From assembly GCA_963845755.1 (NCBI GenBank), contig CAWJTV010000005.1, positions 384,001-448,000 on the forward strand: a DNA stretch of 64,000 nt, given 5' to 3'. Positions within the stretch are counted from its first letter, which is position 1; each line of letters begins with the position of its first letter. Shown here in pieces: positions 402-21,876 of this stretch. The position numbers and the translations under genes are program-made. The DNA is from an uncultured Planctomycetota bacterium. Lineage in GTDB: Bacteria; Planctomycetota; Planctomycetia; Isosphaerales; Isosphaeraceae. The notes below the pieces were generated by a model that did not search any database, was not told where the DNA came from, and was given only the letters and a program-made list of their open reading frames with translations.

Positions 402-729
402 CGCTGTGTGCTCCCTGCACGGAAAGAGCCACGATTAAACGAGTTGGGGACGCTGAGGTCGTTCTTTTCGAGATCCGTGTCGAAACGATTCGTAAACCAG
501 ATAGAGGAAGATCCTTCGAGCGCAGTCTCCCTGAATTGCATTCATGTGAAATCCTAATGCCTGGCCGGGAGCAACGCAACGGGAAGGACTTCGATTCCGC
601 GCTGTCCGACGATCGACCAGACCAAGAGTTGCCGCCTGTTGGCGTCTGGAAGCGAGTAGAACTTTCGTTCGATTGTGGTTTGTGCGTTCTGGAGCAGAGT
701 CGCTAATCCTTCCATGGGCGAGGTACGCC

Positions 730-3700
730 GTGAGTCGCAACACAGTGGGTTTCCGGTGGCGGAGCCGTTCCGGCGCGGGCTGGATCGTGGGATGGCGATC
801 CCGGCGGGGGGATCGGCACCGGCTCCGGCCGGGATTGCTGGAGCTGGAGGAGCGCCGGCTGCTCGCGACGTTCCCCGTCACCAGCACGGCCGACGACAAC
901 AGCCCCGGCACCTTGCGGTATGAGATCAACGAAGCCAACGCGGCCACGGGTCCCACCACGATTGAATTCAGTGCCACGGTCTTCAGCACGCTGAAGACGA
1001 TCGCGCTGATCGGGAGCCAGCTCGAACTGAGCAACACCGATGGGCTGATCACGATTACTGGCCCGGCGGCGGGCGTGAACATCAGCGCCGGCGGCCTCAG
1101 CCGCGTCTTCCAGGTCAACAAGGGGGTGACGGCGTCGATCTCGGGCCTGACCATGACCGGGGGCAAGGTGAGTGGTAACGGAGGAGCCCTGGACAACCTC
1201 GGCACGGTCACCCTGACCAAATGCACGATCAGCGGCAGCACCGCCACGAGCAGCAGCGGCGGCGGCCTGTTCAGTACGGGAACCGCCTACCTGATCAACT
1301 GCACCGTGAGCGGCAACTCCGCCACATATGGCGGCGGCCTGTTCAATGACAAAGGCACGATGACCCTGACCGATGATTGCACGGTCAGCGTGAACAAGGC
1401 CGGGTACGATGGCGGCGGCCTGGGCAATTCCGGCACAGTCAACCTGACCAACTGCAACCTCAGCAGCAACAAGGTCTACCCTGGCGGTGGCGGCGGCCTG
1501 GACAATCAGGGCACGGCCTACTTGACCGACTGCACCCTCGAGTCCAACTCTGGCAAGGGTTACGGCGGCCTGTACAATTCCGGCACAGCCAAACTGACAG
1601 ACTGCACGGTCAGCAGCAACTTGGCCAATTTCGGCGGCGGCGTGGGGAATTTCGGCACAGCCAACCTGACCAACTGCATCCTCAGCGAAAACATGGCGGG
1701 CATCGCCGGCGGCGGCCTGGACGAGGGGAAGGGCCAGGCCACCCTGACCGACTGCACCATCAGCGGTAACGTGGCTCAACTCGGAGGAGGGGTGAGGATT
1801 GGCGGTGCGGGTAAGGCAACCCTGACCGACTGCACCCTTAGCGGCAACTCGGCGACGGCAGGCAGCGGTGGCGGCCTGCGCAGTAGTAGCTATGAAGCGA
1901 ACGCAGCAATCCTGACCGACTGCACCATCAGCGGCAACTCCGCGTCAAATCAGGGCGGCGGCCTGTATAAGGAGAGTAATGGCACGATGGATCTGACCGC
2001 ATGCACGGTCAGCGGCAACTCGGCCAGTAACGGCGGCGGGCTGTATAACACCAGCTACTTCAGCTCCAACTCCCAGGCGACGCTCACCGACACGATCGTC
2101 GCCGGCAATACTCTTCCGAACGGATCTACTCCCAACGACATCCAGGGTCCGGTCAGTGTCTCTGGCAGCGATAACTTGATCGGCCCCGGTGGTGCGGGTG
2201 GGCTTCAGAATGGGAGCGCCGGCAACATCGTGTTGGGCGACCTGAGCACCCTGGGCCTGGCCCCACTAGGATTCTACGGCGGCCCGACCCAGACCATGGC
2301 GCTCCTCCCCGGCAGCGCGGCCATCCACAACGGCACGATGGTCAGCGGCGTAACAACCGACCAGCGTGGCGAGTCGCTCGACTCACCCCCCGACATCGGG
2401 GCCTTCCAGGTTCAGACCGGGCTGGTCGTCAACACCATCAGCGACGGCTCGGTCTCGGTCTCCGGCGACCTGAACCTGCGCCAGGCCGTCAACCTGGCCA
2501 GTGCGCTCGACGCCTCCGAGACGATCACCTTCGACGCATCGGTCTTCGCTACTGCACAAACAATCACGTTGATGCAGGGACCGCTCGCGCTGAGCGACAC
2601 CGGTGGGACGGAGACGATCACAGGCACTTCAGCGGGGTTGACCATCAGCGGCGGGGGCGACAGCCGCGTGTTCGACGTCGCCGCCGGCGTGACCGCCGTC
2701 ATCTCGGAACTCACCATCACCGGCGGCTCGGCCAGTACTAACGGCGGCGGCCTGTATAACCAGGGCACGACGACGATCGCCGACTGCACCATCACCGGAA
2801 ACTTGGCGAAAGACAACGGTGGCGGGCTGGCAAGTGTTGGCACACTGGTCGTCACCAACTGCACGATCCGCGGCAACTCGGCCAGCGGCGGCGGCGGCCT
2901 AGCGATCAGCGGCACGGCGAGCCTGACCGACTGTACGATCAGCGGCAACTCCGCCGGCGGAACCGGCGGCGGCCTGTATAACCAGGGTGCGGCGACGTTG
3001 GAGGACACAATCGTCGCCGGGAATACCGGGAGCGGCGGCACCGCGAGCGACATCCACGGCAGCGTCGCGGGCTCCAGCTCGTTTAACCTGGTTGGCACCG
3101 GGGGCTCGGGTGGACTGAGCGTTTCCGACCACAACCTGCTCAACGTCGCCGATCCCGATCTGGCTCCACTCGGCGAGTACGGTGGACCGACGGAAACCCT
3201 GGCACTCTTGCCCGGGAGCGCGGCTATCGGCGCGGGCACGGCCGTGAGTGGTATCACCACCGACCAGCGAGGAGCATCCCGACCGAGTTCCGGCGGTGTC
3301 AACATCGGGGCCTTCCAGGATCAGGGTTACACCCTGGCCGTCTCCTCGGGAAGCTCTCAGAGCACGTTCGTCAGCCAGGCCTTCGCGTCTCCGCTGGTGG
3401 CCGAGTTGACCGAGAACGATACAAGCGCACCGCTCCCGGGCGTGACGATCGGCTTCAGTGCGCCGTCATCGGGGGCCAGCGCCACACTCGGTGCCAGCTC
3501 GGCGGTCACCGACTCGAGCGGGCGCGCGAGCATCACGGCCACGGCCAATGCGACCGCCGGCACCTACGTCGTGACAGCCTCCGTATCCGAGCTGACTTCC
3601 TCAGCTTCATTCACCCTGACCAACCAGGTTCAGCCGACCTTTTCGGGGCTGAGCAGCCAGACGATCAGTTATGGCAGTACGGTGACGTTCTCGGGCACGC

Positions 3701-6597
3701 TCGCAGCCGGTTCGCAGGTCCCGGTTGGCGAGGACGTTGCCGTCACGGTCGATAGCGTCACGCAAGACGCCACGATCGCCTCCGACGGTTCGTTCTCGAT
3801 CCAATTCACTCGTTCGAACGTGGTGCTGAACGCGAGCTTGACGGCCTACAGCGTCACCTACGTCTACGCCGGCGATCGTGTTTTCCTCGCGGTCGACGGA
3901 TCGAGCCAACTGACGGTCAACCCGGCGGCGCTGACGATCGCCGCCAAGAATGCCGGCAAGACCTACGGCCAGACGTTGACCTTCGCCGGGACCGAGTTCA
4001 CCACCTCCGGACTCGTCAACGGCGACACGGTCACCTCCGTCACACTGAGTAGCCCCGGCACGGCGGCGACGGCCACAGTCGCCGCCTCCCCCTACGCGAT
4101 CACCGCCACCGCGGCCGTCGGCACGGGCCTGGGCAACTACACCATCACCTACGCCCCGGGTCAGCTCACCGTCAACCCGTCGGCGCTGACGATCACCGCC
4201 AAGAATGCCGGCAAGACCTACGGCCAGACGTTGACCTTCGCCGGGACCGAGTTCACCACCTCCGGTCTCGTCAACGGCGACGGGGTCGGCAGCGTGACGC
4301 TGAACAGTCCGGGGGCGGCGGCGACGGCCACGGTCGCCGGCTCGCCTTATGCCATCAAAGCCTCCAACGCCGTCGGCACCGGCCTGGGCAACTACACGAT
4401 CACCTATGTCAATGGCCAGCTCACGGTGAACCCGGCGCCGCTGACAATCGCGGCGAAGGACCTCAGCAAGACCTATGGGCAGACGTTGACTCTCGCCGGG
4501 ACTGAGTTCACCGCCTCCGGCCTCGTCAACGGCGACGCGGTCAGCTCCGTCACGTTGTCAAGCCCCGGCGCGGCGGCGACGGCCACAGTCGCCGGCTCTC
4601 CCTACGCGATCACCGCCTCCGCGGCCATCGGCACCGGCCTGGGCAATTACACCATTAGCTATGTCCCGGGTCAGCTCACCGTCAACCCGGCGGCGCTCAC
4701 GATCGCGGCGGTGGCCGACACCAAGACATACGACGGCACGACGAACGCGACGGTGGTCCCGAAGATCACCTCGGGAAGTTTGGCCAATGGTGACATGCCC
4801 GAGTTCACCGAGACCTACAGCGCCCGGAATGTCGGCACGGGGCTGACGCTGACGCCGAGCGGGACGGTCAACGACGGCAACGGCGGCCACAACTACACAT
4901 ACACATTCGTGGCGGTGTCGACGGGCACGATCACTCCGGCCCTGCTGACCGTCACCGCCAAGAATGACGGCAAGGCCTACGGCCAGACGTTGACCTTCGC
5001 CGGGACCGAGTTCACCACCTCCGGACTCGTCAACGGCGACACGGTCAGCAGCGTGACGCTGAACAGCCCGGGAGCGGCGGCGACTGTCACGGTCGCCGGC
5101 TCGCCCTATTCCATCACCGTCTCCTCCGCCGCCGGCACGGGCCTGGGCAATTACACCATCACCTATATCAATGGTCAGCTCACGGTGAACCCGGCGGCGC
5201 TGACGATCACCGCCAAGAATGCCGGCAAGACCTACGGCCAGACGTTGACCCTCGCCGGGACCGAGTTCACCACCTCCGGACTCGTCAACGGCGACACGGT
5301 CAGCACCGTCACGCTGACTAGCCCCGGCGCCGCCGCGACCGCCGGCGCCGCCGGCTCGCCTTACGCGATCGCGGTCTCCAACGCTGGCGGCACGGGCCTG
5401 GGCAATTACACCATCACCTACGCGCCGGGAACGTTGACGGTTACCCCGGCCACGCTGACCATCACGGCGGGCGACGCGACGAAGGTCTACGGTGCGGCGC
5501 TGCCGGCCTTAACGGCGAGCTACAGCGGCTTCGTCAACGGCGACACGGCGGCCAGCCTTGCCACCCCGCCGTCGCTGTCAACGACCGCGACCGCGACGAG
5601 CCCGGTCGTGTCCGGCGGTTATCCGATCACGGCCTCAGGTGCCGTGGATCCCAACTATGCGATCACCTACGTGGCCGGGACGCTCACGGTCACCCTGGCA
5701 CCAGCGGCGATCTCGGTTTCCGCGCCCGGCGGCACGTTCAATGCCAGCCCCTTCTCGGCGTCCGTCACACTGAGCGGGACGGGCAACCCGCCCGCCGCCA
5801 CCCTGGAAAACGTCAGTCCCCGATTGACCTACTACGCCGGGTCGGGGACCTCGGGCACCAAACTCGGGTCGACGCCGCCGGCCCCCACGGGGACCTACAC
5901 CGTCGTTGCCGCGTTCCCCGGCAGCACCGACTTCGCCGCGACCCAGTCCTCGCCGATCTCCTTCACGATCGCCCAGGCTCCCTCGACGGTCGTGCTCACA
6001 TCCTCCGGCAACTTGGCCGTTTTCGGCCAACCGATCATTCTCATGGCGACCGTCACGGGCCCCGGGACCCCGGCCGGGTCCGTCCTGTTCACCGACGGCG
6101 GCACGACGCTTGCCACCGTTCCTCTTGACGCCTCGGGTCGAGCTTCGATCACCACCTCGGCCCTCGGCATGGGCTCGAACCCCATCGTCGCCACCTACAG
6201 CGGCAATAACAACCTTCTCGCCGCGACGTCCAGCTCTACCTTGGTATCAGTTACTAAGGCCGATACCCGGGTGATCCTGGTGCCGCGGGCCGTCAACAAG
6301 AGGAAGAAAGTCGCGTCACTGAGCCTCGATGCGGAGGTCCAGCCTTTACCGCCCGGGGCTGGTGTGCCCTCCGGCACCGTCACCTTCGAGGTCAGGCAGA
6401 AGAAGAAACTCAAGGTCATCAGCATCGTCCCGCTCAACAGCGGGTCGGCGACCGTGTCCGTCAAGCCCAGCACGGTGCGGAAGAAGTCGGTCACGATCGT
6501 GTACGGGGGCGACAGCGCATTCCAGTCGAGCAGTTCGTCCGCCACAGTGTCGGTCAGGCCGGCGACGGCCCTCGCGCGAGTCACGATCCGATCGTGA
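730..6597 (+). CDS. Large secreted surface protein/adhesin: planctomycete LExRxLL motif, beta-helix (GGGLxN) repeats, choice-of-anchor-Q-like segments, MBG/YDG repeats, Ig-like domains
   Basis: N-terminal RLRPGLLELEERRLLA; many TDCTISGNSAxxGGGLYN repeats; two GGPTxTxALLPGSAAI...TDQRG...IGAF motifs; MBG-like repeats; C-terminal Big-like domains. Start GTG 730 is my choice (ORF track 673). Confidence 0.85.
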   Translation: MSRNTVGFRWRSRSGAGWIVGWRSRRGDRHRLRPGLLELEERRLLATFPVTSTADDNSPGTLRYEINEANAATGPTTIEFSATVFSTLKTIALIGSQLELSNTDGLITITGPAAGVNISAGGLSRVFQVNKGVTASISGLTMTGGKVSGNGGALDNLGTVTLTKCTISGSTATSSSGGGLFSTGTAYLINCTVSGNSATYGGGLFNDKGTMTLTDDCTVSVNKAGYDGGGLGNSGTVNLTNCNLSSNKVYPGGGGGLDNQGTAYLTDCTLESNSGKGYGGLYNSGTAKLTDCTVSSNLANFGGGVGNFGTANLTNCILSENMAGIAGGGLDEGKGQATLTDCTISGNVAQLGGGVRIGGAGKATLTDCTLSGNSATAGSGGGLRSSSYEANAAILTDCTISGNSASNQGGGLYKESNGTMDLTACTVSGNSASNGGGLYNTSYFSSNSQATLTDTIVAGNTLPNGSTPNDIQGPVSVSGSDNLIGPGGAGGLQNGSAGNIVLGDLSTLGLAPLGFYGGPTQTMALLPGSAAIHNGTMVSGVTTDQRGESLDSPPDIGAFQVQTGLVVNTISDGSVSVSGDLNLRQAVNLASALDASETITFDASVFATAQTITLMQGPLALSDTGGTETITGTSAGLTISGGGDSRVFDVAAGVTAVISELTITGGSASTNGGGLYNQGTTTIADCTITGNLAKDNGGGLASVGTLVVTNCTIRGNSASGGGGLAISGTASLTDCTISGNSAGGTGGGLYNQGAATLEDTIVAGNTGSGGTASDIHGSVAGSSSFNLVGTGGSGGLSVSDHNLLNVADPDLAPLGEYGGPTETLALLPGSAAIGAGTAVSGITTDQRGASRPSSGGVNIGAFQDQGYTLAVSSGSSQSTFVSQAFASPLVAELTENDTSAPLPGVTIGFSAPSSGASATLGASSAVTDSSGRASITATANATAGTYVVTASVSELTSSASFTLTNQVQPTFSGLSSQTISYGSTVTFSGTLAAGSQVPVGEDVAVTVDSVTQDATIASDGSFSIQFTRSNVVLNASLTAYSVTYVYAGDRVFLAVDGSSQLTVNPAALTIAAKNAGKTYGQTLTFAGTEFTTSGLVNGDTVTSVTLSSPGTAATATVAASPYAITATAAVGTGLGNYTITYAPGQLTVNPSALTITAKNAGKTYGQTLTFAGTEFTTSGLVNGDGVGSVTLNSPGAAATATVAGSPYAIKASNAVGTGLGNYTITYVNGQLTVNPAPLTIAAKDLSKTYGQTLTLAGTEFTASGLVNGDAVSSVTLSSPGAAATATVAGSPYAITASAAIGTGLGNYTISYVPGQLTVNPAALTIAAVADTKTYDGTTNATVVPKITSGSLANGDMPEFTETYSARNVGTGLTLTPSGTVNDGNGGHNYTYTFVAVSTGTITPALLTVTAKNDGKAYGQTLTFAGTEFTTSGLVNGDTVSSVTLNSPGAAATVTVAGSPYSITVSSAAGTGLGNYTITYINGQLTVNPAALTITAKNAGKTYGQTLTLAGTEFTTSGLVNGDTVSTVTLTSPGAAATAGAAGSPYAIAVSNAGGTGLGNYTITYAPGTLTVTPATLTITAGDATKVYGAALPALTASYSGFVNGDTAASLATPPSLSTTATATSPVVSGGYPITASGAVDPNYAITYVAGTLTVTLAPAAISVSAPGGTFNASPFSASVTLSGTGNPPAATLENVSPRLTYYAGSGTSGTKLGSTPPAPTGTYTVVAAFPGSTDFAATQSSPISFTIAQAPSTVVLTSSGNLAVFGQPIILMATVTGPGTPAGSVLFTDGGTTLATVPLDASGRASITTSALGMGSNPIVATYSGNNNLLAATSSSTLVSVTKADTRVILVPRAVNKRKKVASLSLDAEVQPLPPGAGVPSGTVTFEVRQKKKLKVISIVPLNSGSATVSVKPSTVRKKSVTIVYGGDSAFQSSSSSATVSVRPATALARVTIRS
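3910..5690 (+). repeat. Intragenic tandem MBG-domain repeats, 255-bp (85-aa) period
   Basis: Related GC(C/G)AAG...AAG(A/G)CCTA(C/T)GG(C/G)CAGACGTTGAC blocks start at 3943, 4198, 4453, 4957 and 5212. A YDG-like unit lies at about 4700-4940 and a divergent unit at about 5460. Confidence 0.9.
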
Positions 6598-6649: not shown

Positions 6650-7906
6650 TCAGGCGACGACCTCGGCCTTGGTCAGGGCGGAGTGCGGGACCCGAGCGCC
6701 TTCCACAGCCCGTCCGCCCTCTCCCAAGAAGAGACCCTGCCAGCCCCGGCTCACGGAAGCCAGTGTCAACGCCCCGCCGAGCCCGCCGGCCAGCGCGAAC
6801 GCGAGAAAGCCCCCGCCGAAGCTGCCCAACGTCTGTTTCAATACGCCCAGGACGATCGGCAGCACGAAGCCGCCGAGCCCGCCGGCCGCCCCGACGATCC
6901 CGGTCACCACGCCGATCTCCCTGGGAAACCGCTGCGAGACGATCTGGAACACGCACCCGTTGCCCATACCCAGCGCCGTCATGACCGCGAACAACAGGAC
7001 CGTCCCGGCGAACAGCGACGGCAGGGCCGACATGCCCAGCATCGTGGCGCCGACGACCAGATAAAGTGCAGTCAGCACCCGGACGCCCCCGAACCGATCG
7101 GCGAGATAACCACCCAGGGGCCGCAGCAGAGAGCCGGCGATCACGCAGAGCGTGGCGAAGCCGCCCGCCTCGACCTTCGAGAGTCCGTACTGGCTGAGGA
7201 AGAAGACGTTCAGGAAACTCGCCAGCCCGACGAACCCACCGAAAGTGATCGCGTAAAAGAAGCAAAACCACCAGGTGTCGGCGAGCTTGAGCACGGCGGC
7301 ATAGTCGGTAAAGGGCCGAGGCGGCGGCTGATCGGGACTGTCCTTGGCGATGATCAGGAGCACAGTGAGCGTCGCCAGGAGTGGGATCAGCGCCAGGCCG
7401 AACACGGCGTGCCAGCCCCAGGTCGCGGCGAGCCGCGGACCGAAGAACGTGGCCAGGGCTGTACCGCAGTTGCCGGCGCCGGCGATCCCCATCACCAGCC
7501 CCTGAAAACGCGGCGGATACCAGCGGCCTGCCAGCGGCAACGCCGCGGCGAAGCTCGCCCCCGCCACGCCCAGCAGCAGGCCGACCAGCAGCAGCGTGGC
7601 GAAGCTGTCCGCCCAGAGCCAGCCGAGCAGCAAGGGCAGCGTCGACAGCGACATCCCCAGAATGGTCGTCCGCCGTGCGCCGATCCGGTCGGTCAAGAGT
7701 CCCATCACCAGTCGCAGCACGGCCCCGCCGAGAAGCGGCACCGCCACCATCAAGCCCTTCTGCATGTCCGATAGGCCATACTCCGACGCGATCGAGTTCG
7801 CCAGCGCCGCGGGGATAAGCCAAACCATGCAGCTCACACCGAAATACAGGAAGGCACTCAGCAAGGTTGGCACATGGCCGGCACGGCGGAATTCGCTCAA
7901 GTTCAT
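6650..7906 (-). CDS. narK: MFS nitrate/nitrite transporter (NarK/NasA family)
   Basis: GHVPTLLSAFLYF, GASFAAALPLAGRWYPP..QGLVMGIAGAGN, FGGFVG and GMGNGCVFQIV motifs; about 12 hydrophobic segments; lies in the nitrate cluster. Confidence 0.9.
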   Translation of the reverse strand: MNLSEFRRAGHVPTLLSAFLYFGVSCMVWLIPAALANSIASEYGLSDMQKGLMVAVPLLGGAVLRLVMGLLTDRIGARRTTILGMSLSTLPLLLGWLWADSFATLLLVGLLLGVAGASFAAALPLAGRWYPPRFQGLVMGIAGAGNCGTALATFFGPRLAATWGWHAVFGLALIPLLATLTVLLIIAKDSPDQPPPRPFTDYAAVLKLADTWWFCFFYAITFGGFVGLASFLNVFFLSQYGLSKVEAGGFATLCVIAGSLLRPLGGYLADRFGGVRVLTALYLVVGATMLGMSALPSLFAGTVLLFAVMTALGMGNGCVFQIVSQRFPREIGVVTGIVGAAGGLGGFVLPIVLGVLKQTLGSFGGGFLAFALAGGLGGALTLASVSRGWQGLFLGEGGRAVEGARVPHSALTKAEVVA

Positions 7907-8159
7907 TGCTTCGAGGCTCCGGGTTTCGGGATATCGGAGTCGGATCGTTGCGAGCAGCTCGCGATGAGGTTGCATAAATTAAATCTATATATATAAATAT
8001 TAAAATAATTTATTTATTTTATTGACGCCGATGAATATAGTGTACGGGTGCTTCACCTGTTATTCCACCTGTTCTCAGGTAGACAGCTTTCAGGCGGTTG
8101 ACGCTCGGATCATGCGCGCGACACGCGCCGTGGGGTGCGCCACTCATTCGTACGGCGGC

Positions 8160-11123
8160 CTAGACGCAGGCCACCGCGCATGGCTTGGAGGCTCGGGCAC
8201 GGCGTTGCATCTCCTTCACGGGCGGCAGCTCGACGTACACGTCTTCCCCTTCGATCCGCATTGGGAAGACTTCAACCCGGTACGACTCGCCGGTCAGGCA
8301 CTCCCCCGTCTCGAGCGAGAACGTCTTCTTGTGCATCGGGCAGGCGACTTTGGGAACGCCTTGATGATCACCGAGGATGCCGCGAGAGAGGACGGCTTCG
8401 AGCTTGTGAGGGCAGGTATTCTGGCTGGCGTACCACTCGCCCCGGGAATCGAATCGGTAGACGGCGATCTCGGCATCGCCGTGCTTGATCGCGCGGCCGC
8501 CGTCGCGGGGGAAGTCGCTGACCGACCCGACGCGGACCCAGCGGGGAGTGTGCCCGAACTCGTGCGATCCGTCCTTCCGTTCGAGCGGCTGCCGGATCCC
8601 GAGCTGCTCGATGGGGACGAAGTCGCTAGGCCAATCGGCGGGGTGCTTCTGGCCTCGCTCCGACACGAACTCCACGCCCGAGGTCGCCTCGTCGGTGTTG
8701 GCGAACTGCTTGAAGAACCGCCGCTTTTCCGGGTCGTTGACAACGGCCTTCCATTCGCACTGGTAAGAATCCACGAGCCCTTGCATCTGCTCTTCGAGCT
8801 CATCCGCGATGCCGAGACGATCGTTGACGATCACGTCGCGGAGGTACTCGATCCCGCCCTCCAGGTTCTCGAGCCAGACCGACGTCCGGGTCAGCCGGTC
8901 CGCGGTCCGGATGTAGTACATCAGGAACCGGTCGAGATACTGAAGCGCCGTCTCTTCGTCGAGGTCGGCAGCGAGTAGGTCGGCATGCCGCGGCCGCACG
9001 CCGCCGTTACCGCAGACGTAGAGGTTGTAACCCTTTTCTGTGGCGATCAGTCCGAAGTCCTTGCCCTGGGCCTCGGCGCACTCCCGGACGCAGCCTGAAA
9101 CAGCCCCCTTGAGCTTGTGCGGGGCGCGGAGCCCCCGGTAGCGCATCTCGACCCGGATGGCGAACCCGACCGAGTCCTGGACGCCGTACCGGCACCAGGT
9201 CGAGCCGACGCAGCTCTTAACAGTTCGGACCGCCTTGCCATACGCATGGCCGCTCTCGAAGCCGGCCGCGACCAGCTCGGCCCAGATCTCCGGAAGGCGG
9301 TTGACCGGCGCCCCGAAGAGGTCGATGCGCTGACCTCCCGTGATCTTGGTGTAGAGGCCGTATTTCCGCGCAACCGTGCCCAAGACGATGAGCTTCTCCG
9401 GCGTGATCTCGCCGCCGGGAACTGCGCGGGACCACCGAGTACAGACCGCCACGCTGGATGTTGGCCAGGAAGCGGTCGTTGGTGTCTTGCAGCGTCGCGT
9501 GGGCCGCGTCGAGGACGTTCTCGTTCCAGATCGTCGCCATGATTGAAGCGACTGCCGGCTTGCAGATCTCGCAGCCCTGCCCGCGGCCGTGCGACGCGAT
9601 CAGGTCGTCGAACGTCCGGATCTGCTTGATCATCGCGATCTGATAGAGTTCCTGCCGGCTGTACGCGAAGTGATCGCAGAGCCGGTTGTCGACCCGTGCG
9701 CCCGCTGCCTTAAGCTCCGCCTTGAGGAGTTCAGTAACCCGCGGCAGGCAGCCGCCGCAGCCGGTGCCGGCTTGCGTGCACTCCTTGACCTGCACGACGG
9801 TCGTGATCTTCCCGTCCCGGATCACGTCGCGGATCTGACCTTCGCTGACGTTGTTGCACGAGCAGACCTGGGCGTCGCTGTCGTTACTGCAAGCGGCGCC
9901 CTTGCCCGCGGAGAGCATGTCGCCCGGTGAGATCGGGAGCGGCTTCTCGCTCTTGAACAGGCCGAGCAACGCGCCGAAGTCCGAGGCGTCGCCAACCAGG
10001 ATGCCGCCCAGCAGACGGGTGCCCTCGCGATTGAAGACCAGCTTCTTGTAAACGCCTCCGAACGGATCGTGGTACGTCAGCGCCCGCGCCCCCTCGGTCT
10101 CGTTAAACGGGTTGCCGAAGCTGGCGACGTCTACACCCATGAGCTTCAATTTGGTTGACATATCGAATCCGGAAAAGGCCCTAGGCGCCCCCGTAAGGTT
10201 CGCCGCGGCGACTTCGGCCATCGCGTACCCGGGCGCGACCAGGCCGTAGACCATATCCCGGTGTGCGGCGACCTCGCCGATGGCGAAGATGTCGGGATCT
10301 GAGGTCCGCATATTGTCATCCACGACGACCCCGCCGCGCCGGCCAGTTGCGAGTCCGCAGTCGTGGGCCAGCTCGTCGCGGGGCCGGATGCCGGCCGAGA
10401 TGACCACCATGTTGACCTCGAGCCGCCCGCCGTCTGCAAACGCCAGACCCTCAACCTTGCCGTTGCCCAGGAACTCCTGCGTGGCCTTCCCCAGATGGAC
10501 TCGGACATTCATCCCCTCGATTTTCTCGAGCAGCGTCCGCGCGCGGCGTCGTCGACCTGGCGGGGCATCAACCGCGGGGCGAACTCGACGACGTGGGTCT
10601 CCAGCCCGAGCTCGCGGACCGCCTTCGCGGCCTCGAGTCCGAGCAGGCCGCCGCCAATCACCGCCGCGGACGCCGCCTCCCCGGCGTAGGCGAGGATTCC
10701 TTCGAGGTCTTCAATAGTTCGATAAACGAACACTCCCCTCTTATCAACACCGGGGACTTTCGGCACGAACGGCGAAGAGCCGGTCGCCAGGACGACGGTG
10801 TCGTATTTGATCTCGCGGCCCGTTGACGAGATGACGATCCGACGCTCGCGGTCGATAGCCGTGGCGCGCTCGCCGACGTGGAGTGTGATCTCCTTCTTGG
10901 CGTACCACGTCGTGCAGGCCAGCTTCAGATGCTCGGCCTCGCGCCGCTCGAAGTATTTCGACAGGTTGACGCGATCATAAGCAGGCCGAGGCTCCTCGCA
11001 GAATGTCACGATCTGGTAGTTCTGGTCGACGTCGTACTCCACCAGCCGCTCACAAAACCGGTGACCGACCATCCCATTACCGATCACCACCACGGTTTTC
11101 TGCGGGCGATTCCGGGCGATCAT
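8160..11123 (-). CDS. nirB: NAD(P)H siroheme nitrite reductase large subunit fused to C-terminal NirD Rieske domain (two apparent frameshifts, ~10540 and ~9425)
   Basis: [12 protein letters not shown] motif, [13 protein letters not shown]-like [22 protein letters not shown] and [10 protein letters not shown] siroheme ligands, then CPHK...VACPMHK Rieske domain. Three track ORFs join by single-base indels. Confidence 0.92.
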
Positions 11124-13416
11124 TGGAGTAGGCTCCCCATGGTGGTTGTTTGTGGGAACACTGTGCCGAGCGGCGTCCCCGGTACGAGCTCATCGGGCCG
11201 GATCGCCCGGACCCGCGCCGCGCAGGCCTTGTAGGCGGGCTGCCGGGACTCGGGATCGAAGACGGCGTCGGTCAGTCGGTTGGTGGATCCGTCGTGCATG
11301 GGCAAGAAGAGATGTCGAATCGGGACGGTCGGAGTCAGGAACGCTCGGACGCGAGCCTGCCCCCGGCGTGACTCGACGATCACCCACTGGCCGGGCCGCA
11401 AGCCGAGACCCTCGGCGTCGGCAGGGTTGATCTCGACGTAGGGGTCCTGGGGATACAACTTCCGCAGGATATCGGACTTGCCCGTACGTGTCTGGGTATG
11501 CCACTGTGCGGCACTACCTCGGCCGGTCAGGAGCTGGAGAGGAAACTCGCCGCCCGGTGGCTCGGGCGTCGGGCGCGGCTCCTCGAAGACGAACCGGGCG
11601 CGGCCGTCCTTGTGGTAGAAACGGCCGTCGACGAAGAGACGCCGTTGCGGAGCGAGATCCGCGCCCTCGGTCGGGAACGGCCACTGGATACCGCCGGTCT
11701 CGTCGAGCATGTGGTAGTCCGTGATGCCGGAGATGTCGCAGGGCATCTCCGTCGTGAGCGTCTTTAGGGACCGGAAGACCGCCTCGGGCGATTCCCACAG
11801 GGCGAACATCGAGCCGCAACCGTAGTAATGAGCGACGAGCTTGAAGATGTGGAAGTCGGACAGGGCCTGGCCCGGGGCGCGGCGCACTTTCTTGATCAGC
11901 CCGATCCGCCGCTCGGAGTTAATGAATGTACCCTCCTTCTCACCCCAGGCGGCCGCCGGCAACACTAGGTCGGCAAGTCGGGCCGTCTCGGTCGAGTGGT
12001 ACATGTCCTGCACCACCAAGAAGTCCAGCCGGTCGAGGATGGCGCGGAGACGGTCCTGGTCGATCCAGGAGTGGGCCGGGTTAGTGCCGATCACCCACAG
12101 GCCACGGATCTTGCCATCTCGAATGCCATCGAGGATCTGATCGTAGGCCCAGCTCGCGCTCCTGGGGATCCGTTCCTCAGGGATCCCGAGCAGTCCGGCG
12201 ACCTTGGCGCGGTGCAAGGGGTTGGCGAAGTCGTGTCCCCCAAGAAGATTGGTGGTGTTCGAGAACAGTCGGGAGCCCATCGCGTTGCACTGGCCGGTGA
12301 TCGAGTTGGCCCCGGTCCCCGGCCGTCCGATCTGACCCGTCATGAGCGCCAGGTTGATGATCGCCTGCGCCGTGCGCACACCCTGATGGCTCTGGTTGAC
12401 GCCCATCGTCCACCAGAAGGAGACGCGTGAGCGCTCGTGGATTCGCCGTGCTGCATCGTGGATCGTTTCGGCGCTCAGACCAGTCTCGCCGGCCACCCGC
12501 TCATCATCGAAGGGGCGGACGAAGGCGGCGAATTCGTCGAATCCGGTCGTATGGGCCTCGATGAACGGCCGGTCGATCCAACGGTTACGGATCAGCACGT
12601 TTGCCAGGCTATAGAGAAGCACGAGGTCGGTCTTGGCCCGCACCGGAAGGTGGAGCGAGGCGGCCATCGCCGTCTCGGTCCTCCGGGGATCGACGACGAT
12701 GATCTCTGGCGAGTTGCGGTTACGCATCACCCGCTCCCAGAGGATCGGGTGGGCGATGCAGACATTTGCGCCGATCAGGACGATGCAATCCGACTCCTCA
12801 AGATCCTCGTAGGAGTAAGGCGGGGCATCGAACCCGAACGCCTGCTTGTAGGCCACGACGGCCGTCGCCATGCATTGGCGCGTGTTGCCGTCGCCGTGAA
12901 CCACACCCATGCCGAACTTGGTCAAGGCCCCGAGCATCGCCATTTCTTCGGTGGCGATCTGACCCGTGCTCAGGAAGGCGATGGACTCGTCGCCGTGGGC
13001 CGCCTGGATCGCTCGGAACCGGTCTGTCATCGCCGTCAGCGCAGTGTGCCAGTCGACCGGCGACTGCTGGCCATCCGCGCCCTCAGGAGTGGCACCGTGG
13101 CGCGGTCGGGGGCATCCAGGACGCTCAGCGCTTCCCAGCCCTTGGGACAGGCCAGGCCGCGATTCACGGGGTAGTTGGTCGTCGGGGTGAGATTAACCGC
13201 CTCGCCATTGCGGATGTGGATGGTGAGGCCGCAGCCCGTGGAACAGAAGCCACAGACCATCCCCGTCGTCGCGTCGGGTGTCTTGCCGGCGGGGACTTGC
13301 CCCAGCCCAAACCCGCCCTGAGCCCTGAGCAGTTCGCGAGTCAATCGGCCGTCGCGGGCACGGACGAAGTTGAGTGCGCGGTCGAGCAGTGTCGGGCTCC
13401 CGCTGGCGATCGTCAC
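11120..13416 (-). CDS. nasA: Molybdopterin nitrate reductase catalytic subunit (NasA/NarB-type), frameshift ~13070
   Basis: N-terminal CGFCSTGC...CPKG 4Fe-4S motif (tail of ORF 13036..15132), NTRQCMATA Mo-ligand motif, [20 protein letters not shown] and [15 protein letters not shown] start overlaps the upstream TGA. No twin-arginine signal. Confidence 0.88.
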
Positions 13417-15132
13417 GGCAGCAGCCCTCCCGGCATCTTCGGCCTGACAACCGCGGCGAAGAACAGGTACCGCTCGGCAGTCTCCGCTCCGATCGATGTC
13501 GCCAGCGCGAGGATCGCAATTGCCGCCGTCGTTCCGGGACGCGCCCCAGGCCGCTGCCGAGATGGCCAGCGCCGGCAAGACGACGCCGCCCGCCAGGCCA
13601 AGCGATTGTCGTAGCCTGGACTGTCGATTCAGCGCCCCGCGAAGCAGGAGTGCCGTTCTTTGCAATGTTCTCACATCGGACCGGGAGAAGTCGCGAACGA
13701 GCTTCGCCTCGAACCCGAGTTTGGCGAACGAAGAGGCGATCAAGCCCATTGCCACGAGCCACAAAGGAAACGACGAGATCGCGTCAAGTGCGTCGGCGCC
13801 GCCGACCTGAGCGATGCCCAGCGCCGCCAGTGCAGTGGCCAGGCCGAGTACAACCGCGGTTCCCGCGAACTTGATCCCGACGTAACACGCGCGCCAGAAC
13901 TCCCGTCGAACGGCGTGGTAGACCATCACCGAGCTAGCAAGGCCCGCCACTCCCGACGCGACAACGGCCCCGAGCAGAGCCAATCGCAACCCCGCCGAAA
14001 CGGGCACCCAGACCGGTCGAAAGAGATCCAGCGCCACGGAGACAGTCGCGAGTGCCGCGAAGAACCCGAAGGCGAGCACCTCGCGACTGAGCCACGAATG
14101 CCTCAGGCCGATGATCGCTCGGTAAGCATAGAGTGGCCGGCCCAGATGGAGGACGCTCGCTATCAGCCCCGCCCATCCCATGCCGAGGCAGAGGGCGGTG
14201 TGGAGGACCGTGCCGACGCCGTGGGTCGCCCCGCCTGCGACGGCGGCCAGTTCTACCACGAAGCCGCCGACCGCCAGTTGAGTCAGCACGAGCATGACGA
14301 CCAGTGGCCAGTGAGCGTGCTCGGGCTCGAGGCGGTGGTCATCCGCCGGCAACACGTCCCCGGGTCCCCGCAGGTGGCTCGACCGGTAAAAGGTTGTTGG
14401 TAGAGTGGATCCCGGATCCGGCACACCGGGCAGGAACACACCAGCCTCGGCCCGCGCGATGACCTCTTTGCGATCTACGATCCGAATAACGATCGCCTCG
14501 TGCGGGCAGGCCTGGATGCAAGCCGGGGCCTCACCGGCCGCGAGTCGATCGCTGCACATGTCGCATTTGCGGACGATTCCCTTGCCCGCGTGAAACCTGG
14601 GCGCATCGTACGGGCAGGCCAAGGTACAGTACTGGCAACCGAAGCACTGGTCGTCGAGATGCCGGACGATCCCCGTGACTGGGTCCTTCTCGTAGGCGTC
14701 GACCGGGCAGGCGGTCAGGCAGGCCGGTTCCAGACAATGATGGCACGCGGTTGTTATATGCTGAAGGATCGGCAGCCCCGGCTGTCCACCAAGGACCAGG
14801 CCCACCTCGCGCCAGGACTCGCCTTCGTCTAACCCGTTGAGGTTGTGGCAAGCTGCCACGCATGCCTTGCAGCCGGAACATCGGTCAAGGTCAACCTCGA
14901 ACGCATACTGCTGCCCAGGACCCGGGGGTTGGGCCGGCATCAGGGCCGAGTAGTACCGGCCCTGGAGCGGCGCATCCGCGTCTTCGTGGATCTGTGCGAA
15001 CCGCTCCACGGCGCTGAGGTCCCACTGCTCCTCCAGGAAGGAACCGATCAGGCCGGCGTTCGGCAGGATCGCCCCGAACGCTGGCTCTCGGTCCAGCACC
15101 GGCATCGTAACCTGCGATCCAGCGAAGTTCAT
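13413..15132 (-). CDS. Fused 4x[4Fe-4S] ferredoxin (DmsB-like) plus DmsC/YnfH-like membrane anchor, frameshift ~13545
   Basis: Cys groups CSGCKACVAAC, CHHCLEPACLTACP, CFGCQYCTLACP and CDMC...CIQACP, followed by HWPLVVMLVLTQ, SVLHLGRP..SWLSREV and AERYLFF (DmsC-type motifs). Confidence 0.85.
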
Positions 15133-15586: not shown

Positions 15587-16220
15587 TCAACTCGGGTCGC
15601 GGACGCCTTCTAACCCGACCTCGTGGACGACGGTCAGCCGCAGGAGTTCGATCAGTGAGCGGACCCCGAGCTTGCGCATAAGGCTCGATCGCCTCAGCTC
15701 GACGGCTCGGGGCGTGATCTGGAGCGAGCTCGCGATTTCCTTATTCGGCCGCCCCTCCTTGATCAATTCGAGGACCTCGCGCTCCTTGTCGGTCAGCCGG
15801 TCGAATCTCAGTGCCAGCTTCTCGCGATTGGCGATCCGGCCGCGGCGCTCGGTGTCGTTCTTGATCGCGCGCTGGACCTTGTCCAGGAGAGTCTGGCGAT
15901 TGAACGGCTTCTCGACGAATTCGACGGCACCGGACTTCATGGCCCGAACCGCCATCGTGACATCGGCATATGCCGTGATGAAGATGACGGGCATGCCTTC
16001 GCCACGCGCGACCAATTCTTCGAAGAGGTCGAGACCGCTTGTTCCCGGCATCCGCACGTCGAGGATCACGCAACCAGGCCCGTCCGGGGTGAAATCGCGG
16101 AGGAATTCGGCGGCTGAGGCGAATGTCTGCGGGGCGGAGCCCGACGGTCTTCATCAGCCAGCGCAGCGAGTCCCGCATGTCGGGGTCGTCATCCACGATG
16201 TAAACTGCTGACTGATCCAT
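15587..16220 (-). CDS. FixJ/LuxR-family response regulator, frameshift ~16135
   Basis: MDQSAVYIVDDDPDMRDSL..., then ILDVRMPGTSGLDL, AMKSGAVEFVEKPF and LTDKEREVL...NKEIA (LuxR HTH). Confidence 0.9.
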
Positions 16221-17670
16221 CGTCGATACTGCCGGACGGAAGCCTGAAGTGGAAGCTTGTTCTGGCGCCGGGACAGGATGTGACGCTGATCCGCCCCTGG
16301 TGGGCCTCGATGAGGGTTCGGCAGATCGCCAGGCCCATGCCCAGCCCACCGGCACGCGTGCTGAAGTACGCATCAAAAACCCGGTCCAGTGACTCGGGAT
16401 CGATCCCCTCTCCATTGTCGATGACGGCGAATTCGACACCCCCGGACTCGGCTCGCTGTGTCTGCATAACTAACATGGGCTGAAGCGGTTGCGCCGCGAG
16501 AGCCTCGAAAGCATTTCGAACCAGATTCACGAGGACCTGCTGAATCTGAATGGGATCGCCCCACAGATAAGGCAAATCGGGTGCCAGCTCTACCCGGACG
16601 GCAATCCCCCGCTGTTCGGCCTCTCCGCGGAGGATCTCCTGGACCTCCTCGACGACTCGGTTCGGCTCGAATCTCTCGCGCCTCAGTTCATGGCGGGTTA
16701 CAAACTTGCGGATCCGGTCGATGATCTGGCCGGCGCGGAGCGTCGTGGCCAGCAGTCGCTCCACCGCAGTACGGACTTCATCCAGGGCCGGCTGTGGCGC
16801 CGCGAGTTCGACCAGACAGCCCTCGGCGTAGTTGGCGATGGCACCCAACGGCTGGTTGAGCTCGTGGGCCAAGCCGCAGGCCATTTCGCCGATCGTCGTC
16901 GTGCGTGCGACGTGACTGAATTGCTCGACGAGCGCACGGTGCCGCTCGCCGGCGAACTCCAACTCGCGGGTCCGCAAGAGGACTCCGGCCTCCAGATCGT
17001 CACGCGCCTGCTTCAACTCGGAGATCCGGCGCCGGATCAGTGCAGCCGCCGGTCGGAGGATGAACAGGCCGATCGCCGCGAGGGTCACCAGGATCAAGCC
17101 CGTGACGATCCATCCGATACGACGAAGGTCGGCGACCCGACCTCGTGCTTCTCTCTCGTAAAGTCCGACGACTTGATCCATTCGTCGGAGGTATTCGGCC
17201 TCGTTGTCGAGGATGATTCCCACTTCCTCCCGTACCCTGGCGATGCCGTGCCGGAATTCGTTGTCGTCTTGCGTCATCTGCCGCGCCGCGTCGCGCATCT
17301 TCACATAGTAGGGATAGAGGCCCTGCAGCCTGTCCCGCACGATCTCACTACTCCGGCCGACTCGTGATGGAGCCTCTTCGTCGCGAAGGAGTTGTTCCTG
17401 GGAGACGGACCAGATTCCGAGCACCTGTCTCATCTCTTCGAGATAAGCCTGCGCCCCTCCGCCCCGCCCGCCTTCGATGGCCAGGGCAGCCTTGACCAGG
17501 CGCTGACTGAGCATACGCTGCCGACCGGCAACATTGATCAAGGGGGCATCGGTCATCAGTTGGATCAAATACGGCTGGACCAACACCTGATTGCCCAGGA
17601 CCAGGATCGCTACAACGGCTAGAGCGATCCAGTACCTCTGGCCGAAGATTTCCACAATCTGCTCATTCAT
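16189..17670 (-). CDS. Sensor histidine kinase with NarX/PilJ-like periplasmic domain and FixL-type kinase core
   Basis: TM1, then INVAGRQRMLSQR (P-box/N-box-like), TM2, GLAHELNQPL (H box), QVLVNLVRNA, DNGEG, FSTR and GLGMGLAI. Confidence 0.88.
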   Translation of the reverse strand: MNEQIVEIFGQRYWIALAVVAILVLGNQVLVQPYLIQLMTDAPLINVAGRQRMLSQRLVKAALAIEGGRGGGAQAYLEEMRQVLGIWSVSQEQLLRDEEAPSRVGRSSEIVRDRLQGLYPYYVKMRDAARQMTQDDNEFRHGIARVREEVGIILDNEAEYLRRMDQVVGLYEREARGRVADLRRIGWIVTGLILVTLAAIGLFILRPAAALIRRRISELKQARDDLEAGVLLRTRELEFAGERHRALVEQFSHVARTTTIGEMACGLAHELNQPLGAIANYAEGCLVELAAPQPALDEVRTAVERLLATTLRAGQIIDRIRKFVTRHELRRERFEPNRVVEEVQEILRGEAEQRGIAVRVELAPDLPYLWGDPIQIQQVLVNLVRNAFEALAAQPLQPMLVMQTQRAESGGVEFAVIDNGEGIDPESLDRVFDAYFSTRAGGLGMGLAICRTLIEAHQGRISVTSCPGARTSFHFRLPSGSIDDGSVSSLHRG

Positions 17671-18089
17671 AATTGTGTCTCGATGACATGGCTGCCTCAG
17701 CGCTTTGTGGCGATACGCTTGTCGATCGCCACCATGGCCCTGCAGACTCTGGGCATCAGGGCGGTCATCCGGGTCGTGCCCCTCCACGATCCGTTCGAGA
17801 TCCGTGTCCCGACACTCCTCGTTCCGATCACTCGGGGCTCGCTGTGTTCATTCTGCCGGTTCTGCCGGCAAGCTTGAAGAGGATGACCGGCAGGTTTTCC
17901 GGAGCTGGTCTGATCTTCGCACCATCGGCTTCGACCTGTAACGTCATCCTGGTCGGTATCAGCCATGGCTCGAAGAGCCCGGCGCGCCCTCATCATACGG
18001 AATCGGCCTCCCAGGACTTGCGGGCCTTCAGTATGATTGGCAGGTTCCGATACGGAGCGGGCAGGTCATCGCATCGAAAGGAGTCATCG

Positions 18090-20944: not shown

Positions 20945-21876
20945 TCAGGTCCCGCGATGGCGTGGCTCGTTGCCTCGAGAGGAAGGCTTCGAGGTGGACA
21001 CCTTCTTGGCCTGGGGCCTTTCGGGATCCGCGGGAATCAATGAAGTGGGCAGGACCTCGTCCTCGCTCGTCAGGTCGGGAAAGCCCGGTGCAAAAGTTGG
21101 CGGGACGACCGTCATGAGTTGCTTGGCCGACCAGATACCATGCCGTTCATTCCCGGGGAAGTAGACCGGGGTGTCGAACGTCAAGGGCTTGTCCATCGTG
21201 TATTGTGAGGCAAACCGCAGACCGAACATGCAAACGGGGAACTCGGGGGCGCGCTCCATGTCGCCCACCCTGATGGCTTTGGACAGCTCGATCCCGGCGG
21301 CCATGAAAGCTTTCTGGGTCATCTCGACGCAAGAAAGCGCCTTGTCGTCGAGGGAGAGCTCGTAGTCGAACGGCACTTGCTCCTGATACACCCTGTGACA
21401 GTAGGCCATGACCTCGGGGATGGCCCGGCGATACTCCGGACGCAACCGCTTGACGCCGATCCAGCCGACGTTGTCGAGGATCCAGACGCAGAACGGCTGC
21501 CGGGCCACGCCCGTGGCGGCGTGGTATCGTAAACCACCGGCCCCTCTTCCTCCATAGACACGACACCAGTATGCGAGAACGGGCTATTGCTGCAATTGGC
21601 CAGGAATCGGCTCATCGGGAAATAGCCGTGCAGGAGGCGGGCATCACCCCGGCGGAAAACGATGTCGCCATCGCGCAGCACCTGACGGCCCCATCGGTCC
21701 CAGCGCGCCATATGAGGGGTCATGACGATCGGAGGCATCCTCCCCTCGCGCCGGGCTTCCGTGGCCGTTGGACCATAAAAATTGCCCACGTAGCCCGAAG
21801 CCAACTGCTCGCTCATCTCACGCTCTTCGGGATGGAATAACACGATGGAGAGGAACCAAGCGAGGATTCCGGTCAT
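20945..21876 (-). CDS. Permuted papain-like amidase (YiiX/YaeF-like), frameshift ~21515
   Basis: LRDGDIVFRRG...FSHTGVV (His) precedes PFDYELSLDDKALSCVEM (Cys), the permuted NlpC/P60 order. Confidence 0.75.

Follow-up and report, generated by a model that had tools for sequence, protein, structure and literature searches.

Where does a nitrate reductase of the assimilatory (Nas) type obtain its electrons when its gene directly follows that of a membrane module? The electron donors known for assimilatory nitrate reductases are NAD(P)H flavoproteins, ferredoxin or flavodoxin. The question is raised by an operon in a 64,000-nucleotide stretch of the genome of an uncultured planctomycete of the Isosphaeraceae (the window, i.e. 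this stretch at its full length). On the minus strand the operon encodes a fusion of DmsB- and DmsC-like parts (dmsBC), a Nas-type molybdenum (Mo) subunit (nasA), a NirB-NirD fusion (nirBD) and a NarK-family transporter. A reading of the letters alone, hereafter the sequence-only reading, had interpreted the gene pair as a cytoplasm-facing, quinol-fed nitrate reductase, and our analysis supports this interpretation. We consider it rather likely that the operon specifies a quinol:nitrate oxidoreductase which is bound to the membrane, faces the cytoplasm and provides NirBD with nitrite. As far as its sequence tells, a normally soluble nitrate reductase would here probably draw its electrons from the respiratory quinone pool. 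The computed results comprise gene content, the conserved pairing, the clade and motifs of the proteins, their charge bias and a predicted interface, whereas we infer that quinol is the donor, which way the electrons flow and that the enzyme serves assimilation.

Conservation of the gene pair

The sequence-only reading had ascribed four features to the stretch 11120-15132 and its surroundings: a NasA-type Mo subunit with neither a signal for twin-arginine translocation (Tat) nor a BFD extension, a GTGA overlap of its start with the preceding gene, a single polypeptide with four [4Fe-4S] motifs and a DmsC-like anchor, and NirB-NirD and NarK after the Mo subunit. All four are present on the minus strand. 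The overlap was found at the expected site (Table 1), and NirB-NirD and NarK were recovered by Pfam. Yet dmsBC and nasA are not intact open reading frames (ORFs) as assembled, and the frameshifts had gone unmentioned.

Relatives of the fusion are numerous. The protein collection holds at least 7989, the best of them from Isosphaeraceae, and the only name they carry at NCBI is 'DmsC/YnfH family molybdoenzyme membrane anchor subunit'. A genome scan gave at least 532 confirmed relatives, and 80 loci were kept for locus counts. By record title 71 of these belong to Planctomycetota, 7 to Vicinamibacterales and 1 to Myxococcales, while 1 is unclassified; the phyla Planctomycetota, Acidobacteriota and Myxococcota are thus represented. 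A Nas-type Mo gene directly follows the fusion gene in 78 of the 80 loci, and the contigs of the other two (L014 and L031) do not extend beyond the fusion, so that the synteny anticipated by the sequence-only reading is borne out. At these 78 junctions the overlap of a candidate start with the stop amounts to 4 nt in 32 cases and to 1 nt in 7; a gap of at most 50 nt was seen in 22 and a longer one in 17. NirB is encoded in 48 of the 80 loci, 36 times upstream and 12 times downstream; 2 of these lie on the opposite strand.

Of 401 genomes sampled evenly across the phylum, 32 had a full-length fusion, this genome included, and one family of the same class carried it in 20 of 20 genomes. The design is common but patchy in the phylum. 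Five further genomes (G093, G128, G228, G232 and G374) gave weaker fusion-like matches with E values of about 1e-90 to 1e-104, which start only at profile position ~70. These lack the N-terminal arm of the fusion and may partner a different enzyme.

The Mo subunit

Over two ORFs of the window Pfam placed the domains of the Mo subunit in the order Molybdop_Fe4S4, Molybdopterin and Molydop_binding, and no BFD domain was found by Pfam. The closest solved structure is the monomeric NapA of Desulfovibrio desulfuricans (2NAP/2JIM) with an E value of 1.8e-109 over residues 46-739, and the Mo ligand segment RxCMASAV aligned with that of this NapA. All 26 fusion-linked Mo subunits carry RQCMA(S/T), i.e. 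Cys-Met, at the ligand site. Among the references the site reads CM in 5 of 7 Nas-type enzymes and CT in the other 2 (Hymenobacter and Streptomyces), CM in both NapA and CQ or CH in 3 enzymes annotated as FdhF.

A quick maximum-likelihood (ML) tree of 38 rows was calculated with references taken from plasmid records, cyanobacterial NarB and Bacillus NasC not being among them. The 2 NapA and 3 FdhF-annotated rows fell outside a group of 33 Nas-type rows with a Shimodaira-Hasegawa-like approximate likelihood ratio (SH-aLRT) of 87, and the fusion-linked rows lay within the Nas-type references on a long stem. The phylogeny is in line with the Nas-type assignment of the sequence-only reading. The nearest named neighbour in the tree is a long-branched Mo enzyme of Cetobacterium. 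On plasmid p1 of Cetobacterium somerae (L088, 3980-7738) this oxidoreductase is encoded with a 135-residue 4Fe-4S dicluster protein and an FAD-dependent oxidoreductase, a set of genes that may represent a soluble counterpart of the same wiring.

Two properties of the N-terminus set the fusion-linked subunits apart. The arm preceding the FS0 motif measures 38-73 residues in 25 of 25, compared with 6-18 residues in 6/7 Nas-type references; it has 41 residues in the Hymenobacter enzyme, and the motif was not found in that of Streptomyces. A Tat-like motif combined with a hydrophobic stretch was detected by regular expression in none of 25 Mo subunits, of which 24 had no RRxFL-type motif. The single match (L056) had no hydrophobic region after the motif, while both NapA controls matched.

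No NCBIfam equivalog was passed by the Mo subunit or by the fusion; NapA, for example, scored 329 bits (cut-off 904). Nitrate as the substrate is therefore assigned from motif, tree and gene context, the latter consisting of NirB in 48 of 80 loci and NarK in the window. The highest NCBIfam score is that of Fdh-alpha with 486 bits, under its cut-off of 666, as might be expected if the subunit did not reduce nitrate but, as a formate dehydrogenase-like enzyme or another kind of oxidoreductase, passed electrons on to quinone. This we regard as very improbable in view of the Cys-Met of the Nas/Nap style in 26/26 subunits, where the FdhF-annotated references have Cys-His or Cys-Gln, the grouping with Nas-type references in the tree, and the conserved position beside nirBD and narK. 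By these features the Mo subunit is of the Nas type, not NapA or FdhF, and it forms a separate subfamily.

The enzyme is neither Nar nor Nap, as had been proposed: no match to NarG (TIGR01580) at an E value of 1e-10 was present in this genome, which is 87.9% complete, and NapA lies outside the clade. At C47:111661-113555 the genome has another molybdoenzyme gene of a Nas/Fdh-like kind, which is also frameshifted and shares about 32% identity with the operon Mo subunit. A genome-wide tblastn search gave no fusion-like match on C47.

The DmsB-DmsC fusion and its orientation

Pfam recognised two parts of the fusion in one frame, the Fe-S domain with its four clusters (Fer4_11, E 3.3e-22) and the DmsC anchor (PF04976, E 2.1e-13). 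The 20 fusions compared share 16 invariant cysteines in four motifs (C84/87/90/94, C129/132/137/141, C162/165/168/172 and C189/192/204/208), in agreement with the single four-cluster polypeptide described before. In an AlphaFold2 (AF2) model the transmembrane part reached a predicted local distance difference test (pLDDT) value of ~90, and eight transmembrane segments were assigned from the AF2 helices and a hydropathy scan. The top Foldseek match of the anchor was PsrC with bound menaquinone (2vpw_C; template modelling (TM) score 0.61 by target, borderline E value of 1.3e-3).

H325, S342, E347 and R539 are invariant in 20/20 fusions and, in a profile alignment, correspond to His65, Ser82, Glu87 and Arg271 of E. 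coli DmsC. According to the available text of PMC8076601, changes at His65 and Glu87 of E. coli DmsC affect quinol oxidation, and the Ser and the Arg of helix 8 are conserved across NrfD-like subunits. The invariance of these residues would agree with the link to quinol that the sequence-only reading had ascribed to the module.

The fusion could instead merely tether the Mo subunit or relay electrons to it, with the DmsC part anchoring the complex without quinol turnover and electrons from NAD(P)H (via NirB) or from ferredoxin entering the Fe-S domain on its cytoplasmic side. NirB in 48 of the 80 loci is compatible with such a wiring, as is the case of Paracoccus, where the nitrite reductase flavoprotein supplies the nitrate reductase (NasB/NasG/NasC). 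Furthermore, the Cetobacterium enzyme, the nearest named one in the tree, has a soluble wiring of small 4Fe-4S protein and FAD oxidoreductase. On the other hand, the invariance in 20/20 fusions of four residues that match functionally important positions of E. coli DmsC is hard to explain for an inert anchor, and 32 of the 80 loci show no NirB in the DNA examined, the flanks being short in some. We consider a role as a mere tether quite unlikely and favor an anchor that would oxidise quinol.

The orientation of the module was deduced from its charges. Lys and Arg add up to 15-20 in the loops on the Fe-S side and to 1-7 on the opposite side in 20/20 fusions, while in E. coli DmsC the bias is reversed and weaker (~4 vs ~8). 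No Tat motif was found by regular expression in any of the 20 fusions. By the positive-inside rule positively charged loops remain in the cytoplasm, and DmsAB is periplasmic. Because of the charge bias the Fe-S domain is thus predicted to be cytoplasmic and the module to be inverted with respect to DmsABC, which matches the topology suggested by the sequence-only reading.

Predicted complex of the two proteins

For modelling of the complex we used the Mo subunit of Paludisphaera soli and residues 20-260 of its fusion. The predicted complex had an interaction prediction score from aligned errors (ipSAE) of 0.91, while the best of 3 controls scored 0.00; docking of the pair is thereby predicted as anticipated. 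Among solved complexes 116 of 157 attained that mark, as did 2 of 215 mismatched pairs; the counts are rough here because own alignments were used. The runs agreed in at least 90% of the contacts, and the pLDDT of the partner was at least 86. The predicted interface is formed by residues 19-52 and 86-95 of NasA and residues 23-59 and 82-124 of the DmsB part. It joins the N-terminal arms of both proteins, and the FS0 loop (86-95) faces the first Cys motif (82-100). Enzymes of this kind usually show the same arrangement.

Frameshifts and assembly quality

As assembled, dmsBC, nasA and nirBD contain four single-base indels in 8.5 kb. Uncorrected ORF calling yields a 698-residue ORF (13036..15132) with Fer4_11, the DmsC anchor and a C-terminal Molybdop_Fe4S4 domain, followed by an N-terminally truncated ORF of 636 residues (11120..13030) with Molybdopterin and Molydop_binding. 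Because the former joins Fe-S, DmsC and Molybdop_Fe4S4 domains while the rest of the Mo domains are in the next ORF, it is a chimera made by the indels of dmsBC and nasA together. A programmed frameshift or a true three-domain fusion was rejected as an explanation of the 698-residue ORF: relatives encode the two proteins by separate genes, and the residues read out of frame are Arg-rich nonsense.

In tblastn with the 572-residue homolog P0001, dmsBC showed 84% identity over residues 1-530 and 80% over residues 532-572 in the next frame (13538-13416), the last residue of P0001 being placed at 13416. Run X1 contains eight pieces at least 99% alike to the window. The base at 13540 is absent from a 319-nt contig of this run, which has 1 mismatch to the window and, at a depth of 3.2, could itself be in error. 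At the nasA site the distance between two conserved blocks is 50 nt in the window, one less than the 51 nt of L001, L002 and L004, the relatives that were spot-checked. The corrected lengths of 572 and 765 codons equal those of P0001 and of the L004 ortholog. Two further shifts are located in nirBD at ~10533-10545 and ~9422-9424, and the NirB-NirD ORFs of relatives (982-1053 residues) align to the window in three frames. The base at 9424 is absent from a ~90%-alike contig of run X3. Contigs of runs X1-X3 covered 13540 and 9424, but neither ~13082 nor ~10540.

When proteins of relatives were aligned genome-wide, 15 genes outside the four of the nas operon gave usable matches. Changes of frame, 6 in total, were seen in 5 of them, and the other 10 are intact. 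Split genes occur in many places of the assembly, for example at window 20945-21876 (minus strand), C13:225145-226534, C13:27209-28562, C11:112160-113558 and C39:237193-237973. An MqnA-family gene on C39 is likewise split. The density of about one shift per 2-3 kb elsewhere matches the four in 8.5 kb of the operon. The assembly comprises 14.27 Mb in 49 contigs at 87.9% completeness and 3.3% contamination. The data suggest uncorrected indel errors throughout the assembly, and gene calls from this genome need care. Because frameshifts are equally dense elsewhere and the X1 contig lacks the base at 13540, the four frameshifts of the operon are most likely assembly errors.

If, on the contrary, the four indels were real, the operon of this genome would consist of decaying pseudogenes that encode nothing functional here, whatever the family does elsewhere. 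Four frameshifts within 8.5 kb would fit such a decay. Only a single indel is contradicted by a near-identical contig, itself of depth 3.2, and the adjacent 5.9-kb ORF (673..6597) is undamaged, which is unexpected at the estimated error rate. These points count against a functional enzyme encoded by this copy. Yet shifts are just as frequent elsewhere, in the checked genes as well as in the MqnA-family gene; the proteins, once the shifts are disregarded, share 79-88% identity with intact relatives and have no stops or deletions; and NarK is intact. We hold decay of the operon to be unlikely. The operon of the window is a typical, ordinary member of the group in a noisy, error-laden assembly.

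Layout of the operon and its neighbours

The features of the operon and of its surroundings are collected in Table 1.

Table 1. The nas operon and adjacent features of the window, with the observations on which each assignment is based.
Feature	Position	Strand	Evidence
Sensor histidine kinase with PilJ/NarX-like N-terminal sensor domain, upstream of the operon	16189..17787	-	Pfam PilJ (E 4.9e-09), HisKA, HATPase_c
LuxR/GerE-type response regulator	15587..16439	-	Frameshift near 16130; Response_reg and GerE in ORF 15587..16069
dmsBC fusion gene, 572 codons and stop	13413..15132	-	Pfam; alignment with homolog P0001
Conserved N-terminal arm of the fusion			
DmsB-like four-[4Fe-4S] domain of the fusion	~14482-14910		
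8-helix DmsC/NrfD-like anchor of the fusion	~13413-14313		
Extra base breaking the dmsBC frame	13538..13543		tblastn: frame -1 down to 13543, frame -2 from 13538
GTGA overlap: Mo subunit GTG start (13416-13414) and fusion TGA stop (13415-13413)	13413..13416	-	Sequence
Nas-type nitrate reductase subunit with molybdenum bis(pyranopterin guanine dinucleotide) (Mo-bisPGD), 765 codons allowing for the missing base	11120..13416	-	Pfam; tree; motif
54-residue N-terminal arm, FS0 Cys motif and Cys-Met Mo-ligand site of the Mo subunit			
Missing base beside a GGG run breaking the nasA frame	13078..13084		Frames -1 and -3 meet at C5:397081-397084
ATGA overlap of nasA stop and nirB start	11120..11123	-	ORF coordinates 11120..13030 and 10509..11123
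NirB-NirD fusion, ~987 codons	8160..11123	-	Pyr_redox_2, Fer2_BFD, NIR_SIR, Rieske_2 (Pfam, over three ORFs); NCBIfam nirB and nirD
NarK-family nitrate/nitrite transporter of the major facilitator superfamily (MFS), intact	6650..7975	-	MFS_1; TIGR00886 NarK family (E 3.5e-82, below cut-off)

Orthologs of the kinase lie upstream of dmsBC in nine further loci (L001, L002, L004, L007, L009, L011, L012, L013 and L034). With the LuxR-type regulator, proteins of relatives aligned in two frames (C5:400400-400134 and 400126-399620). NirB and NirD form one polypeptide of ~980-1050 residues here and in the close relatives L002, L004, L007, L012 and L034. On the plus strand beside the operon, the intact ORF at 673-6597 codes for 1974 residues in which Gly/Thr/Ser repeats abound and TYGQTLTFAGTEFTTSGLVNGD units recur many times in near-identical form; judging by this composition its product looks like a giant surface or adhesin-like protein.

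The neighbourhood bears on the role of the enzyme. The same quinol-fed complex might be chiefly dissimilatory, serving at low oxygen as an electron sink or, with NirBD, in nitrate ammonification rather than in nitrogen supply. The NarX/PilJ-like domain of the adjacent kinase suggests control by nitrate and not by nitrogen status, and enterobacteria use NirBD for dissimilatory nitrite reduction. As no NarG was found in this 87.9%-complete genome, the operon could be the sole route to nitrate as an acceptor, and electrons entering quinol via complex I would conserve energy. Against this stand the grouping of the Mo subunit among assimilatory-type enzymes and the predicted position of quinol and nitrate sites on the cytoplasmic side, by which the enzyme itself would generate no proton gradient. 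In addition, the carriers belong mostly to lineages of aerobic heterotrophs, and the two roles are not exclusive. A chiefly dissimilatory function thus seems rather unlikely to us, and we tentatively favor nitrogen supply as the role of the quinol-fed enzyme.

Proposed electron path

In the mechanism that we propose, NarK would import nitrate. A DmsC-type site, located where anchor helices 2 and 3 end on the cytoplasmic side, would oxidise menaquinol, and the electrons would reach FS0 of the Nas-type subunit through the fused DmsB-like domain with its four [4Fe-4S] clusters. From FS0 they would pass on to Mo-bisPGD, where nitrate would be reduced to nitrite, which the NirB-NirD fusion would convert into ammonium with NAD(P)H. 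The choice of quinone was based on biosynthesis genes. Because MqnA-family genes of the futalosine pathway are present in the genome, while neither UbiA nor MenA was found in it above the cut-off, the data weakly point to menaquinone as the likely quinone.

Several observations, in addition to the frameshifts, weigh against a quinol-fed nitrate reductase. By analogy with Paracoccus, NirB of the same operon could in principle feed NADH electrons to the Mo subunit. The enzyme itself would not be electrogenic if its quinol site lay towards the cytoplasm. The NCBIfam scores fell short of the cut-offs for NasA_Halo (475 vs 1000 bits) and NasC (421 vs 1100), with Fdh-alpha slightly higher (486 vs 666), and the DmsB equivalog TIGR02951 was missed by the fusion with 131-133 bits vs 214. 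The Fe-S domain of the AF2 model was poor, with a mean pLDDT of 59 and values <50 for residues 77-213, and Foldseek gave no PDB match at an E value of 0.001 or less. Because related pairs of catalytic and Fe-S subunits of molybdoenzymes have solved structures, the score of the predicted complex may reflect likeness and not real binding. Finally, the occurrence in the phylum is patchy (32 of 401 sampled genomes).

We put forward, tentatively and at somewhat less than even chances, that the pair constitutes a distinct bioenergetic class of nitrate reductase, in which a Nas-type enzyme is connected to the respiratory chain on the inner side of the membrane. Electrons would flow from NADH via complex I and menaquinol to cytoplasmic nitrate, and the same route could also dump electrons at low oxygen. 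If so, nitrate assimilation via complex I and menaquinol would cost less energy than with a soluble NADH enzyme. Under oxygen shortage, nitrate could take up surplus electrons of nominally aerobic planctomycetes, acidobacteria and others. Part of the nitrogen cycle would be misread by surveys in which nasA is taken as a sign of assimilation only, linked to oxygen, and metagenome counts of nasA would be interpreted differently. Several cultured planctomycetes carry the module, among them Paludisphaera soli JC670, Singulisphaera acidiphila DSM 18658, a Gimesia strain and Alienimonas chondri.

Comparison with known systems

According to the available text of a 2020 phylogeny (PMC7331816), canonical four-cluster or anchor subunits do not accompany any member of the Nas/Aio/Nap/Fdh clade. 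If real, a Nas that faces inward and is fed by quinol would be an exception to this rule and add a fourth class of electron donor. In the available text of PMC8076601 no nitrate reductase of this kind is listed among the NrfD-type complexes, and 'nitrate' occurs a single time in the complete article. Full-text literature searches, which did not extend to subscription journals and supplements, turned up no account of a DmsB/DmsC module combined with an enzyme of the Nas type.

The monomeric NapA of D. desulfuricans has the same Cys-Met-Ala-Ser-Ala-Val ligand segment. Yet NapA is exported to the periplasm by Tat, and the NapA references fall outside the fusion-linked clade in the tree. With NarGHI the proposed enzyme would share the membrane-bound state, the feeding by quinol, the cytoplasmic active site and the import of nitrate via NarK. 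NarG, however, has an Asp ligand and comes from another Mo lineage, and its anchor NarI is a di-haem cytochrome b; in this genome NarG had no match.

The soluble part of the sulfite:quinone oxidoreductase SoeABC faces the cytoplasm, and the enzyme has no Tat signal. It likewise combines a molybdoenzyme, a four-cluster subunit and an NrfD-like anchor. It is set apart by its other catalytic lineage and substrate, its transfer of electrons to quinone and its unfused subunits. SoeABC is listed together with FqoABC in the available text of PMC8076601.

The module itself resembles E. coli DmsABC and Thermus PsrABC, which have the same four-[4Fe-4S] subunit and haem-free 8-helix quinol anchor of the DmsC/NrfD type. 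E. coli DmsB matches the profile of the family at an E value of 6e-40 and DmsC at 3.5e-13; the quinol-site residues of DmsC are kept here, and PsrC is the top structural match. In contrast to these systems, B and C are fused in one chain, Tat export is lacking, the inverted charge bias would have the module face the cytoplasm, and the catalytic partner is of the Nas type and not of the DmsA/PsrA type.

The Mo subunit, on the other hand, has its counterparts in the classical NasA, NasC and NarB of Klebsiella, Ralstonia, Paracoccus and others. These too are cytoplasmic Mo-bisPGD subunits with FS0 and a Cys-Met site, are encoded with nirBD and a nitrate transporter, and group with the fusion-linked subunits in the tree. 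The proteobacterial references have 866-913 residues, 7-18 of which precede FS0, whereas the fusion-linked subunits comprise ~730-785 residues, have no BFD domain and carry an arm of 38-73 residues that lies in the predicted interface with the Fe-S domain.

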